From IMG/VR virus record IMGVR_UViG_3300045988_016556, positions 1-40,368 of that record: DNA of 40,368 nt. The stretch is one strand, 5' to 3'. The notes under the pieces are model-generated. The model saw only the letters and a list, made by a program, of their open reading frames with translations, had not been told where the DNA came from and did not search any database. The translations under genes were made by a program, and so were the position numbers. Source of the DNA: a virus. Shown here in pieces: positions 1,377 to 40,368 of this stretch (position 1 is the stretch's first letter; each line of letters starts with the position of its first letter).

Positions 1377-1769
1377 CTAACTTTGGCGAGGGAGATTATA
1401 GGGCTTTTTTAGTAGTTTCAAATATTCATGTTTTACAAAAGTCTCATCACAAATCGTGGTGAGATTATATTTTTCCATGAAGTGTAAGTAATTGAAGTCG
1501 TCAAGATTTTCATTTTTCAACAACTCATGGATCATAATCCTATTTGCTTGAACCTCATACTTTTCCCGTAGACGCTCATAGTCTTTAGAGTTCTGCTCTA
1601 GGTGGCCCAATTCATGTAAAATGACCTTCAAACGTATTTTTGGGTCTAAATCCTTATTGATATAAACCACCCTGTTTATAGGATCAATAAAGCCGTTTCT
1701 GGGCCACTGGCTAGAGTCGAACTCACAAAGAGACACATTGAACTGCTCAAGCAATTCGTTTTCAGTCAT
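1377..1769 (-). CDS. ImmA/IrrE-family zinc metalloprotease (anti-repressor protease)
   Basis: 130 aa with an HExxH motif (ILHELGHLEQ). It lies immediately downstream of, and co-oriented with, the XRE repressor, which is the ImmR/ImmA arrangement. Confidence 0.8.
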   Translation of the reverse strand: MTENELLEQFNVSLCEFDSSQWPRNGFIDPINRVVYINKDLDPKIRLKVILHELGHLEQNSKDYERLREKYEVQANRIMIHELLKNENLDDFNYLHFMEKYNLTTICDETFVKHEYLKLLKKPYNLPRQS

Positions 1770-1775
1770 AGCACC

Positions 1776-2132
1776 TCACTGTTCCTTACTACTCATGTAG
1801 CCGGCAATTATGCCTCTAATGGCACGCTTATCATCATCAGTAAGCGGTTTGCCATCGAACATCATCGCGTTTTCTATTATGTTATCGATGTCGTGGGAGT
1901 TTTGGTTGTCATTCTGCGAACTTGGCTTAACATTCAAAAACTGTTCTGTTGTCATGCCCAAAGCTTTTGCAAAATCGTCAGCTTTATTCAAAGGAAAAAC
2001 CCTACTTCCCGAAAGATACCTAGATAAAGTCGATTTAGATACCCCAGATTTACTTGCTAATTCAGACATCGACATAGAACTATTGTCTAAATAGCTTTTT
2101 ATTAGCGAAATAATTTCCTCGTTGTTTCTCAT
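1776..2132 (-). CDS. XRE-family (CI-like) phage repressor
   Basis: HTH segment MSMSELASKSGVSKSTLSRYLSG. I moved the start to ATG 2132 (MRNNEEIISL...) rather than the ORF-track start. The gene is divergent from the cro-like gene. Confidence 0.85.
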   Translation of the reverse strand: MRNNEEIISLIKSYLDNSSMSMSELASKSGVSKSTLSRYLSGSRVFPLNKADDFAKALGMTTEQFLNVKPSSQNDNQNSHDIDNIIENAMMFDGKPLTDDDKRAIRGIIAGYMSSKEQ

Positions 2133-2163
2133 ACTCTTTTTCCTTTTATTTAATAGTAAGAAT

Positions 2164-2272
2164 ATTATACAACAGTTCCCGAAAATACACAATACGTTCC
2201 CGAAAATAAACTTTTTTCATATTTTTTTTATTTTAGTGTTGACAAATGGGAACGTGTTAGGTATACTATAAT
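2164..2272. promoter_or_regulatory. Divergent cI/cro switch region: leftward and rightward promoters plus repeated operators
   Basis: The rightward promoter is TTGACA (2239-2244), a 17-nt spacer, then TATACT (2262-2267). The leftward promoter on the minus strand is TTGTGT (2187-2192), a 17-nt spacer, then TATAAT (2164-2169). GTTCCCGAAAATA is repeated at 2175-2187 and 2196-2208 (21-bp period). An inverted GGGAAC half-site at 2248-2253 sits inside the rightward spacer. Confidence 0.7.
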
Positions 2273-38227: not shown

Positions 38228-39613
38228 ATGACATCAAAAACACAGTTATTAAACACGCTTGAGAGCCTAGTCAATCAACGTGTAACCGTGCCCACAAATC
38301 CTTATGGCGGGCAGTGTATAAGTTTGATTGACAATGTTTTGCAATATCAAGGCTTGTTTAACCTTGATTTCAGCTATCTCAATGCCATTGACGGCTTAAG
38401 TCGAGCTGAAAATTTAGGGTTGAAAGTAACACGATTCAACGGGGCTAACAATCCACCGGTAGGGAGTGTTTGGGTAACTAACTGCTTGCCATATCACCAA
38501 TTTGGCCATATCGGTTTTGTGGTCGCAGAAAATCCAGACGGTACAGTTACCACCGTCGAGCAGAATATTGACGGTAACGCTGACTGTCTATATAATGGCG
38601 GTTGGACACGCAAGGTGACACGTAACCTTGATAGCGCTGGTAATTTCAGCTATATTGACTGGAATGCACCAACTCAACAAATGGTGGGATGGTTTGAGTT
38701 GCCATTTGATGGCATGGCACAAGATAATTATTTTATCGACGTGTCAGCTTATCAATCGGGCGACTTAACAGCTATCTGTCAAGCTAGTGGGACTAATAAC
38801 ACAGTGATTAAAGTAACTGAGGGCGTGGGCTGGGTTAGTCCAGTAGCTGGTCAGCAAACTAGCACAAGTAACTGTATCGGTTACTATCACTTCGCCCGTT
38901 TCGGTGGAGATGTAGGCACTGCACAAGCTGAAGCGAATTACTTTATCAGCAATCTGCCATCACACCCACGCTATTTAGTGTGTGATTATGAGGATGGGGC
39001 AAGTGGAGACAAGCAAGCTAACACTAATGCAGTATTGGCGTTTATGGACGTTTGTAAGTCAAACGGCTTTGAGCCTATCTATTACAGTTACAAGCCTTAT
39101 ACGTTAGCAAATGTATATGTAGATCAAATCACAGCACGTTATCCAAATAGCTTATGGATTGCAGCGTACCCAGATTATGAAGTGCGTCCAGAACCTTATT
39201 GGGGTGTGTATCCAAACATGGAGCACACACGCTGGTGGCAGTTCACTAGCACGGGTCTAGCGGGTGGATTGGATAAGAACGTAGTCATTATTAATGATGG
39301 CGACAATCTAGTAAATAAGAAAGAGGAAGAAGAAAATATGGATTATGTAGTACGTAGCGAAAGCGGAAGTCAAGGATATGTTGGTGTAGTTAATGGTCGT
39401 GTGTTTGGTATCGGCTCAATGGGAACAGTAGACGCTCTACGTTCAGCGGGAGCTAAACACTTGACATTGCCAGACGATGATTTTGACCGTTTCTTGAATA
39501 GCCAATCAAACGACACGGCAGCGGTTTCTAAGGCAATCAATGAAGCTAGCGCTTCAGTAGTTAAGGCTATCGAAGAACGTGCACAAGCCACACAAGGCCA
39601 AACTGGTAAATAG
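38228..39613 (+). CDS. Endolysin: CHAP + GH25 muramidase + C-terminal putative wall-binding domain
   Basis: CHAP is supported by GGQCISLIDNV (Cys) and QFGHIGFVV (His). GH25 is supported by YFIDVSAYQ...IKVTEG...GYYHFARF...CDYEDG. The C-terminal 90 aa or so is unassigned. Confidence 0.9.
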   Translation: MTSKTQLLNTLESLVNQRVTVPTNPYGGQCISLIDNVLQYQGLFNLDFSYLNAIDGLSRAENLGLKVTRFNGANNPPVGSVWVTNCLPYHQFGHIGFVVAENPDGTVTTVEQNIDGNADCLYNGGWTRKVTRNLDSAGNFSYIDWNAPTQQMVGWFELPFDGMAQDNYFIDVSAYQSGDLTAICQASGTNNTVIKVTEGVGWVSPVAGQQTSTSNCIGYYHFARFGGDVGTAQAEANYFISNLPSHPRYLVCDYEDGASGDKQANTNAVLAFMDVCKSNGFEPIYYSYKPYTLANVYVDQITARYPNSLWIAAYPDYEVRPEPYWGVYPNMEHTRWWQFTSTGLAGGLDKNVVIINDGDNLVNKKEEEENMDYVVRSESGSQGYVGVVNGRVFGIGSMGTVDALRSAGAKHLTLPDDDFDRFLNSQSNDTAAVSKAINEASASVVKAIEERAQATQGQTGK

Positions 39614-39693
39614 ACCACGAAAACTATAAAATAAAAAAGGAGTATATCACCTCCCGACAGACCACAGTTCGGACATCATGGTGGTAGTGGTCG

Positions 39694-39722
39694 AAGCCCT
39701 GGCATTTGCTGGGGCTTTTTTT
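39694..39722 (+). terminator. Rho-independent terminator after the endolysin
   Basis: The stem is AAGCCCT/GGGGCTT (39694-39700 / 39711-39717) with a 10-nt loop, followed by a T-run. Confidence 0.7.
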
Positions 39723-39797
39723 GTGTTATAATATATATGAAATGACAATCCCCCTGCATCCATTATGGACAGATACGCTCTGACGCAGGGCTTTTTT
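39722..39797 (+). ncRNA. Orphan promoter-terminator unit 1 (candidate sRNA of about 55 nt)
   Basis: An extended -10 element TGTGTTATAAT (39722-39732). The stem is CCCTGC/GCAGGG (39752-39757 / 39785-39790), followed by C TTTTTT. No ORF is present. Confidence 0.4.
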
Positions 39798-39804
39798 AAT
39801 TTTC

Positions 39805-40021
39805 TGTGTTATAATATACCTACAGCAAAAACGAGATTTCGAAAAGAAAAGTGTCAGTAACTCTACGGGGTCTGATGCACAAACAATCTCTATTTTTGAC
39901 TGTTCCAAAGACTGATTGAGTTCAGCGCCATGTAAGCTATGTGCACGTAGCCCGATGGAATTTCTGGAATGGTTGCAATAGCGACTTACTGAAAAGGGCT
40001 ATTTGAGAGAGGGCCCTTTTT
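39805..40021 (+). ncRNA. Orphan promoter-terminator unit 2 (candidate RNA of about 200 nt)
   Basis: TGTGTTATAAT at 39805-39815. The terminator stem is AAAGGGC/GCCCTTT (39993-39999 / 40013-40019), followed by T residues. Only ORFs of 14 codons or fewer, lacking an SD, are present. Confidence 0.4.
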
Positions 40022-40082
40022 GTGTTATAATGAATATCCATCATAGGCAAAGAGCTACGAGGAAACTCATAGCTCTTTTTTA
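40021..40082 (+). ncRNA. Orphan promoter-terminator unit 3 (candidate sRNA of about 45 nt)
   Basis: TGTGTTATAAT at 40021-40031. The stem is AGAGCTA/TAGCTCT (40051-40057 / 40070-40076), followed by TTTTTT. Confidence 0.45.
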
Positions 40083-40085
40083 TAT

Positions 40086-40185
40086 TTGCTAATCTCCACG
40101 ATAAGTGATAACATAGATTTCGGAATACTTGGTATCATTTCGATAAATTCCTCGAACTGTCCCCCGGCTTTTAGTCGGGGTTTTT
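40086..40185 (+). ncRNA. Orphan promoter-terminator unit 4 (candidate sRNA of about 65 nt)
   Basis: TTGCTA (40086-40091), a 17-nt spacer, then TG-extended TAACAT (40106-40114). There is an internal GGAAT/ATTCC stem. The terminator stem is CCCCGGC/GTCGGGG (40062-40068 / 40074-40080), followed by TTTTT. Confidence 0.4.
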
Positions 40186-40193
40186 GTATTGAA

Positions 40194-40213
40194 AAGGGGC
40201 AAATAAGGGGCAA
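40194..40213. repeat. Two AAGGGGCAA motifs 11 bp apart, candidate integrase arm-type sites (right arm)
   Basis: AAGGGGCAA occurs at 40194-40202 and 40205-40213. The motif, orientation and spacing match those at 93-112. Confidence 0.4.
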
Positions 40214-40274
40214 TAAGTGTGAACTTTAGTAACTTTATGTGAGTTTTACCGTCTACATCTTACACGCATATATC

Positions 40275-40307
40275 CGTATATAATAGGTTTTCTTCCTATT
40301 ATATACG
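40275..40307. repeat. Perfect 13-bp inverted repeat near attR
   Basis: CGTATATAATAGG (40275-40287), a 7-nt spacer, then CCTATTATATACG (40295-40307). Confidence 0.6.
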
Positions 40308-40340
40308 CATTTAAAACTGCACTAACAGAATACCGTGGTT

Positions 40341-40368
40341 TGAAATCATTCTACAACTTGAAAAAATA
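40341..40368. repeat. attR core sequence (identical to 1-28)
   Basis: Exact 28/28 identity with the window start. Confidence 0.85.

Follow-up and report, generated by a model that had tools for sequence, protein, structure and literature searches.

A tandem array of four predicted small RNA genes after the lysin gene of a streptococcal prophage, with homologues beside Abi_2 toxin genes

Results and Discussion

Four promoter-terminator units between the lysin gene and attR

The 40,368-bp stretch of DNA analysed here, IMG/VR virus record IMGVR_UViG_3300045988_016556 (hereafter the window), is a whole prophage that runs from attachment (att) site to attachment site, with the 28-bp core TGAAATCATTCTACAACTTGAAAAAATA present at both 1-28 and 40341-40368. 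The last late gene encodes an endolysin, and between it and attR lie ~730 bp that hold no credible protein gene; both the length and the lack of a gene had been given correctly in an earlier note on this DNA. The longest open reading frames (ORFs) there are 60, 48 and 47 amino acids (aa) long and none has a significant Pfam or PHROG match. Positions 39722-40185 of this interval are a tandem array of four predicted autonomous small non-coding RNA (ncRNA) genes, each with a sigma-A extended -10 promoter and an intrinsic terminator of its own (Table 1), and the promoters and terminators of the four same-strand units are at the places where the note had put them.

Table 1. Coordinates of the array and of the features next to it in the window. 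UTR, untranslated region; E, expect value.
Feature	Position	Strand	Details
Endolysin gene (CHAP + GH25), last late gene upstream of the array	38228..39613	+	Pfam Glyco_hydro_25 E 1.5e-25, CHAP E 3.7e-8
Lysin 3' UTR (GGAGTATATCACCTCC hairpin 39639-39654) and lysin terminator (39693-39718 + T-run)	39614..39721	+	Left boundary of the array; terminator scan
Unit 1 promoter, extended -10 TGTGTTATAAT	39722..39732	+	Aligns with the TTTTGTTATAAT promoter of the TP712 abi leader
Unit 1 predicted RNA, cassette A, ~59 nt	39739..39797	+	Fold; orphan homologue of Abi_2 leader ncRNAs
Unit 2 promoter TGTGTTATAAT	39805..39815	+	Exact-match scan
Unit 2 predicted RNA, composite cassette D-in-G, ~200 nt	39822..40020	+	Terminator 39992-40020; fold z = -2.4; 21 distinct homologues
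D hairpin of unit 2, GUGUCAG-UAACUCUACGGGGU-CUGAUGC	39851..39878	+	Compensatory change relative to the Sfi21-type GUGCCAG/CUGGUGC
G core of unit 2	39897..39986	+	Hairpin 1 CUGA-UUGAGU-UCAG; hairpin 2 CCAU..GCUAUG-UGCA-CGUAGC..AUGG; optional hairpin 39971-39986
Unit 3 promoter TGTGTTATAAT, TTGAGA 17 nt upstream	40021..40031	+	Exact-match and terminator/promoter scan
Unit 3 predicted RNA, cassette C, ~45 nt	40037..40083	+	5' single strand UCCAUCAUAGGCAA, then terminator hairpin 40049-40078; fold z = -5.5
Unit 4 promoter TTGCTA, 17-nt spacer, TG-n-TAACAT	40086..40114	+	Conserved across 30 variants
Unit 4 predicted RNA, cassette B, ~66 nt	40120..40185	+	P1 GGAAU 40122-26/AUUCC 40147-51, loop motif UUCGAUAA, single strand UCGAACUGU
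attP arm, outside the RNA array	40186..40340		AAGGGGCAA repeats and inverted repeat 40269-40313
attR core	40341..40368		Identical to attL core 1-28; last codons of host eno, translates ..KSFYNLKK*

Three of the promoters use the same extended -10 element, TGTGTTATAAT, which is found exactly three times in the window (starting at 39722, 39805 and 40021), positions that had been noted, always on the plus strand and nowhere else; with their flanks the three copies make up one repeat family (D1). The motif TGNTATAAT is over-represented in the window, with 6 matches where 1.9 are expected, and 6 was reached in none of 100 shuffles. It had been claimed that each copy of TGTGTTATAAT sits directly on the preceding T-run. 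This is true of copies 1 and 3, which follow the hairpins at 39693-39718 and 39992-40020, but copy 2 lies 8 nt past the T-run of unit 1. The fourth promoter reads as described earlier, with TTGCTA at 40086-40091, a 17-nt spacer, TG at 40106-40107 and TAACAT at 40109-40114 (TGATAACAT). A simple scan for terminator-like sites found 5 in positions 38400-40368, compared with 1.3 expected.

The four sequences had not been recognised as any known RNA family, and Rfam searches bear this out: neither the region nor the related loci searched score anywhere near a gathering threshold. No transfer RNA or transfer-messenger RNA was found in the array region, and reading the four promoters revealed no CiaR box (TTTAAG-N5-TTTAAG upstream of the -10 element), nor did Rfam give a csRNA match. 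Small peptides were considered as the payload of the units and rejected: no frame is conserved, 1-nt insertions and deletions (indels) are tolerated, and the mini-ORFs ATGAAATGA (unit 1) and MEFLEWLQ (unit 2) are not conserved. Spurious ORFs here have weak matches to PHROGs 32855 and 37770, which may derive from "hypothetical protein" calls over cassette B (the unit 4 type, below); such calls are present in some phage records (P7132, P7572 and phage 53). The units are also not a dispersed host intergenic repeat, the outcome that would have spoken against a small-RNA locus, as judged from the unit 3 cassette, which alone was used here: its 18-nt seed has 18 matches in 185,579 species genomes, about the chance expectation, and the sole streptococcal match is a single copy in the right arm of an S. 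salivarius prophage.

A shared motif ATCCATYATRG had been put forward as an exposed common seed of units 1 and 3. The motif is indeed present, as ATCCATTATGG at 39758-39768 and ATCCATCATAG at 40036-40046, but it is not such a seed: in unit 1 it is paired in a predicted TCCA/TGGA hairpin, and no target was found.

The cassettes recur in virulent and temperate phages

The post-lysin DNA of the window matches 331 phage records, all of them S. thermophilus or S. salivarius phages, both virulent and temperate; in most of them the match is confined to the lysin 3' end, the terminator and the first promoter, and 89 records match the unit 3/4 stretch. Pattern scans of IMG/VR gathered ~300 loci (L numbers are locus labels), and the cassette types seen were labelled A to I. 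There are 60 distinct arrays, each with 0-5 recognised cassette types, and their order is roughly fixed: A, D, E or F comes first, then G, then C or I, then B and then H. The window reads A-D-G-C-B. Twenty-four of the 60 arrays end at an early promoter, and 20 end directly at the attP arm, like that of the window, with no downstream operon. In phages Sfi21, 20617, 5093, TP-J34 and CHPC879 the homologous stretch is an unannotated spacer of ~250-750 bp from the lysin to the first early gene, which in several of them is part of an AcrIIA5 or AcrIIA6 operon. Cassettes A and B are present in, for example, CHPC879 and Sfi21. In a 2026 paper the same neighbourhood figures as an early "variable region" with consensus promoters and anti-CRISPR genes, and the small cassettes are not mentioned (PMC13575424).

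This distribution changes two parts of the earlier picture. The array is not specific to lysogeny, as had been supposed, in that the same cassettes are present in virulent S. thermophilus phages, between the lysin and the early/anti-CRISPR region. The units do all point toward attR, but this has no special meaning, because all late genes share the orientation and the attR side begins with a duplicated eno 3' fragment (the att core).

Each cassette is bounded by near-identical junctions of ~20 bp that consist of a T-run and TGnTATAAT (TGTGTTATAAT in the window), and no cassette has lost TG-n-TATAAT (TAnnAT is the hexamer of cassette B). The stems, whose conservation in related prophages had been named earlier as a point to check, are kept paired there by compensatory and G-U changes.

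In some phages a small ORF takes the place of an RNA. In the post-lysin slot of phages 2972 (L090 3080-3260) and TP-J34 (L001 2620-3070, orf55) a small ORF follows the same TGTGTTATAAT promoter, and in phage 20617 (L005 290-400) one lies downstream of cassette B2. The products are tiny hydrophobic peptides in 2972 and 20617, and 74 aa long in TP-J34. The annotated frame of orf30 of phage 2972 may be wrong; another frame gives a peptide that resembles the one of 20617.

Unit 1 and its Abi_2-linked homologues

The predicted unit 1 RNA (cassette A) begins with nCAA, followed by an outer stem P1 (39752-57/39785-90) that is also the terminator stem, and ends in a U-run (39792-97); P1 encloses two hairpins, P2 (39759-62/39766-69) and P3 (CAGA-UACGC-UCUG, 39770-73/39779-82). 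Twenty-three distinct variants of cassette A share the 5' nCAA and the invariant hairpin CAGA-UACGY-UCUG, an invariance that is in part due to the search pattern, of which the CAA motif and the stems were not part. The sequences of P1 and P2 vary freely (P1 is CCCUGC/GCAGGG, CUUCCC/GGGAAG, GUCUACCC/GGGUAGAC, CUCCCAC/GUGGGAG and others), and 17 of 18 sequences, each folded alone, gave the same architecture.

A scan with this invariant hairpin found cassette A RNAs upstream of Abi_2 genes at five IMG/VR loci (L119, L139, L120, L129 and L137), where the U-run of the RNA leads directly into a ribosome-binding site and a 306-321-aa ORF; these ORFs are Abi_2/AbiD (Pfam E 1e-34 and 9e-38; PADLOC AbiD E 2e-33 and 5e-45). 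Two further cases lie in the post-lysin slot, upstream of orf57 of Lactococcus prophage TP712 (Abi_2, Pfam E 4e-41) and of the Abi_2 gene of S. agalactiae prophage Javan17 (Pfam E 6e-42). Unit 1 and the TP712 Abi_2 leader agree at 47 of 59 bases, and their promoters align too; the global alignment score is 36, compared with -10.7 +/- 4.1 for shuffled sequences (z ~11). The invariant P3 hairpin is the same in orphan and toxin-linked copies.

Of the Rfam families only salivarius-1 (RF03030; crystal structure PDB 9G4Q) gave a suggestive match, to unit 1; the resemblance is weak, though specific to the eye. Both have an outer stem around two hairpins, and unit 1 has the consensus CCcUgc/gcAgGG and the AUCCA..UGG start of the first hairpin, but its score of 12.8 bits (E = 2.2, 68 nt searched) falls short of the gathering score of 50 and its inner hairpins misfit the model. 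No gathering-level match to salivarius-1 was present in 20 related loci, and the literature searched gives no function for that RNA.

Unit 2, a composite of two cassettes with different Abi_2 partners

The predicted unit 2 RNA is a composite in which the D hairpin stands in the apical loop of the 5' stem (ACAGCAA...TTGACTGT) of a G-type RNA, with the stem intact. Cassette G varies by the insertion of whole hairpins in loops, with the closing stems kept. A scan with the D loop found a hairpin identical at 32 of 34 bases in an RNA upstream of an Abi_2 ORF at two loci (L255 and L256), in the order promoter, RNA and U-run, and then directly a 315-aa Abi_2 ORF of a third subfamily (Pfam E 3e-39).

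The G core, AAGACUGAUUnnGUUCAGCGCC, is common to ncRNAs that a scan with its first hairpin located 26-28 nt downstream of ~295-aa Abi_2 genes at ~25 sibling prophage loci (Pfam E 1e-19). The encoded proteins have the HEPN motif RNACAHN. In the siblings (L181, L094, L174, L189, L201 and others) the Abi_2 gene is an insertion in the lysogeny module, with the CI-like repressor on one side and the ImmA-like protease on the other, and the promoter of the linked RNA is inside the 3' end of the abi gene. The optional hairpin of G covaries (GGUUGC/GCGACU versus GGGUGC/GCGCCC); the core itself is too conserved for covariation. The G-like RNA was also considered as a leader of the ImmA-like protease gene, an idea that was discarded because the RNA goes with the Abi_2 gene that is inserted upstream. 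In the window the genes for a CI-like repressor (1776-2192, minus strand) and an ImmA/IrrE-like metalloprotease (1377-1769, minus strand) are adjacent, and at one locus (L028) a DUF6414 gene stands between repressor and protease instead, next to an orphan copy of the G ncRNA.

Comparison of these loci thus showed that the predicted unit 1 RNA, the D hairpin and the G core are homologues of putative ncRNAs beside Abi_2 toxin genes in related Lactobacillales prophages. The streptococcal and lactococcal RNAs seem to fall into distinct classes, each with an Abi_2 subfamily of its own. A phmmer search of the window found no Abi_2-like ORF (E<=10), and the window copies are orphans in the sense that they have no such gene in the window while homologous RNAs adjoin Abi_2 genes elsewhere.

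Units 3 and 4

Cassette C (unit 3) is present in more than 110 copies in IMG/VR by an exact-seed scan, all within post-lysin arrays. Of 20 aligned variants, 17 have nearly the same 5' segment, and variation falls in the promoter-proximal spacer and in the hairpin loop. Cassettes C and B travel as a pair, with B following C in 96 of ~115 arrays.

In 30 variants of cassette B (unit 4) the -10 element reads TAnnAT, with only positions 3 and 4 varying, and the upstream GATAAGTG is conserved. Its terminator stem is at 40162-68/40174-80 in the window. In the proposed structure 92% of cells are paired, compared with 30-55% when the partner is slid, and one P1 pair alternates between G-U, G-C and A-U but is never A-C, which points to a plus-strand RNA. 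The Sfi21-type cassette B has P1 GAGU/ACUC in place of GGAAU/AUUCC around the conserved loop UUCGAUAA. The 1-nt indels in cassette B exclude coding.

What might the array do?

The above comparisons tie half of the units to Abi_2 genes, and what would such RNAs do in a phage that has no Abi_2 gene? The ncRNA upstream of AbiF is, according to published work, a type III antitoxin that binds the toxin, blocks its HEPN site and acts in trans. For example, RCd22, which the phi027 prophage of C. difficile encodes between holin gene and abiF, has a sigma-A promoter, a length of ~100-130 nt and a Rho-independent terminator, and it both attenuates abiF in cis and neutralises the toxin in trans by direct binding, like a type III antitoxin (PMC12373285). 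Because the upstream RNAs of the AbiF family are published type III antitoxins, the best reading of the window is an orphan antitoxin-like array acting in trans, and we lean modestly towards the view that its RNAs work against AbiD/F defence. The orphan RNAs would be made constitutively, from the prophage and immediately on infection, and would act in trans as decoy antitoxins against AbiD/F-type toxins that the host or its resident prophages carry. On this view the array would serve as an RNA-based counter-defence, and in relatives it adjoins a protein anti-CRISPR operon. Such a setting is plausible in that Abi_2 genes linked to G occur in prophages that belong to this phage group. The earlier note had suggested a small-RNA island, possibly of RNA antitoxins or decoys, and the recurrent cassettes, the kept promoter positions, the paired stems, the 1-nt indels and the Abi_2-linked homologues all speak for this suggestion, at the level of sequence comparison.

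How close is the array to the known AbiD/F type III toxin-antitoxin ncRNAs (RCd22, the Prevotellaceae AbiF ncRNA and the RNAs upstream of lactococcal AbiD, AbiD1 and AbiF)? It resembles them in the (here predicted) sigma-A promoter, structured RNA of 50-130 nt and Rho-independent terminator, in its prophage position just after the lysis genes, and in that homologues of unit 1, D and G are attached to Abi_2 genes. It differs in having no toxin gene, in stacking several RNAs in tandem and in giving no match to the abiF motif RF03085, and the G class differs further in lying downstream of its Abi_2 gene, with a promoter inside the 3' end of that gene, and not upstream.

Phages with a toxin-less RNA of this sort have precedents: the pseudo-ToxI RNA of phage PhiTE inhibits ToxIN. 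The cos-site hairpin of phage sk1 is an RNA inhibitor of AbiF (PMC13064643). Like both of these, the array would consist of antitoxin-like or inhibitory phage RNA without a toxin that allows escape from abortive infection, an activity that is predicted here; the two precedents are single elements from escape mutants, whereas the array is a conserved multi-cassette locus with dedicated promoters in many wild phages. The cassettes also resemble morons in that every unit comes with a promoter and a terminator, related phages differ in the units that they have and the slot is that between lysin and att, but their payloads are non-coding RNAs and they form a collinear array and not single insertions. 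The AcrIIA5/AcrIIA6 operons share the neighbourhood, lying directly downstream of the array in Sfi21, 20617, 5093, TP-J34 and L028, and have early host-type promoters and variable content; they differ in encoding protein inhibitors of Cas9, and the window has no such operon.

Several observations weigh against an orphan antitoxin-like array. RF03085 gave no match at E<=10 in unit 1, the whole region or the TP712 leader, no match at E<=1 in three of the Abi_2-linked loci (L119, L120 and L139), and none in the G-type RNA of L028, so that what supports the Abi_2 link is adjacency to Abi_2 genes, with no known RNA fold in common. The array G RNA shares the first hairpin and the flank with the Abi-linked G RNA but is unlike it in the second hairpin, and binding to the same toxin is therefore not assured. 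No toxin-linked relatives of units 3 and 4 were found in the ~300 loci or in a plasmid collection (a covariance-model search of 100 loci and an exact-seed IMG/VR scan, both of which returned only array copies, and a plasmid BLAST that returned nothing). A 2026 RNA-seq paper on phage 2972 reports one small low-expressed ORF, which could be the one behind the homologous promoter. Finally, overall cassette identity is 80-92%, no higher than that of the neighbouring coding DNA, and the case for selection consequently rests on the pattern of variation and not on its amount.

The last point is also one that would be expected if the cassettes were relics of lost abi or other moron genes, kept by inertia or as terminators and with no function in trans. 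This is the main rival to an orphan antitoxin-like array, and we think it unlikely. Toxin decay with retention of the RNA can be seen at three loci (L028, L166 and L167), where all that is left is the RNA and the end of the abi gene (its last ~100 nt, or ~110 nt in L167), a further point against the antitoxin-like array, and in TP-J34 and phage 2972 the promoter in question drives small ORFs instead (above). Relics would not be expected, however, to be kept in virulent phages with compact genomes, to have the essential -10 positions intact in every copy, to keep stems paired by compensatory changes across deep divergence, to have the P3 of cassette A identical in orphan and toxin-linked copies, or to conserve cassette order over 60 arrays.

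The remaining readings are less well supported. The units could be base-pairing riboregulators, in which single strands such as UCCAUCAUAGGCAA of unit 3 and UCGAACUGU of unit 4 control host or phage mRNAs during takeover or lysogeny. The near-invariant 5' single strand of unit 3 between variable flanks and a variable hairpin loop, and an architecture of seed plus terminator, would fit, and base-pairing small RNAs (sRNAs) encoded by enterobacterial phages are known (PMC12197685). But no target was found among the 162 translation-initiation regions of this prophage, where the best RNAduplex energies are within the range of shuffled seeds, BLAST-short found no extended antisense match in the window, and the Abi_2 link explains units 1 and 2 better; we judge riboregulation improbable.

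We give still less credit to the idea that the units are cis-acting punctuation only, that is, stacked insulators between late and early genes or toward the host flank, or homologous junctions for module exchange, with the transcripts as by-products. The junctions are nearly identical, cassette content varies by whole units, and the array is exactly at the late/early boundary (PMC13575424). Yet insulation needs no conserved payload, invariant internal hairpins or covarying inner stems, and the early operon of the relatives has its own consensus promoter downstream of the array. In the 20 arrays that end at the attP arm there is nothing to regulate, and this, with the retention of the array in virulent phages, argues against a purely cis-regulatory role. 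That the units are RNA anti-CRISPRs or CRISPR decoys (repeat or tracrRNA mimics, or expendable transcribed targets to which type III spacer acquisition is drawn) seems very improbable: the array is immediately upstream of AcrIIA5/AcrIIA6 operons in relatives and natural type III-A spacers are enriched just downstream of the lysin (PMC13575424), but similarity to four S. thermophilus repeats and two trans-activating CRISPR RNAs is within the range of shuffles (a weak test) and all 6 of the 6 spacer matches listed for TP-J34 are outside its cassettes.

The orphan antitoxin-like array can be extended to a wider proposal, which we put forward more tentatively. Streptococcal phages of the salivarius group, among them the dairy phages that serve as CRISPR models, might carry a variable decoy-antitoxin array in which each RNA is matched to a different AbiD/F HEPN toxin of rival prophages, beside an anti-CRISPR operon and with cassettes exchanged through the shared junctions; units 3 and 4 would be decoys for further toxins or sensors.

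Type III antitoxin RNAs are known from AbiD/F systems, and RNAs with which phages inhibit such toxins are known as well. What appears to be new is the existence of toxin-less copies that are stacked as a conserved, variable array, with RNA classes outside Rfam. These cassettes were not described in the literature searched, whose coverage is incomplete and which took in S. thermophilus phage small-RNA papers and a 2025 review of phage sRNAs. HEPN toxins of the AbiD/F type are widespread and have been proposed as ancestors of Cas13; the characterisation of their RNA antitoxins dates only from 2025. If toxin-less RNAs are routinely carried under strong promoters, this would be a natural RNA-based strategy against abortive infection in phages that are both CRISPR models and of concern to the dairy industry. 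The array offers at least three directly testable RNA/Abi_2 pairings, and units 3 and 4, as two conserved RNAs, could lead to further partners. There is also a consequence for annotation: the region is blank in most phage records, has a spurious "hypothetical protein" in some and is trimmed from the Javan prophage records (below).

Attachment sites, flanks and other cassette types

The left boundary of the array, the lysin 3' UTR/terminator element, is 80-94% identical in the 331 phage records and starts at the lysin stop codon, also in those with a different lysin gene. The lysin of the window is a 461-aa CHAP + GH25 protein and that of the S. thermophilus phages is ~281 aa long, and DNA homology begins at the lysin stop codon. 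The 3' UTR with its GGAGTATATCACCTCC hairpin and terminator looks like a fixed recombination junction. The nearest annotated relatives of the window are S. salivarius prophages Javan534, 535 and 539 (84.5% identity), whose public records end at the lysin stop codon and so omit the array.

The attP arm to the right of the array (~160 bp) is 87-92% identical to the attP-proximal DNA of phages 20617 and 5093. Phage φ20617, which has this attP arm too, inserts between eno and ltaS, at the eno 3' end (PMC6237837), and in that setting the next host gene, ltaS, is convergent. The tyrosine integrase gene of the window is at 87-1259 on the minus strand. AAGGGGCAA repeats are present on both attP arms (93-112 and 40194-40213) and in related phages, and look like arm-type integrase binding sites; between them and the att core on the right is an imperfect inverted repeat (40269-40313). 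The eno stop codon is at 27-29, and positions 29-86 are a phage-borne copy of the eno terminator region. The same ~75 bp come after attR in S. salivarius 85-06 (L075 3481-3555), and for this reason the attP/attB homology probably extends past the 28-bp repeat captured in the window.

In Sfi21, 20617, 5093, TP-J34 and L028 the early "variable region" operon comes after cassette B, and in the window cassette B abuts the attP arm. Neither that operon (AcrIIA5/AcrIIA6 and neighbours) nor its UP-element/TTGACA promoter is present in the window.

Cassette types that the window does not have were drawn from phages with choline-binding-repeat lysins (L142 and L149) and from L011, L014, L025 and other loci. 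Type H (TTAGACAT..CTTGGTAGC..GCTGCCAAG) is placed after B; type I is CCTTCATAGGTAGA, type E contains CTACGGGTCCC, and the remaining one is type F. Just after the lysin terminator, four loci (L059, L010, L012 and L016) have 2-5 tandem copies of TGCTATAAAA before the functional TGCTATAAT, which looks like slippage or duplication of the -10 region. Mitis- or pneumococcus-like phages have an extra cassette before the A-type RNA.

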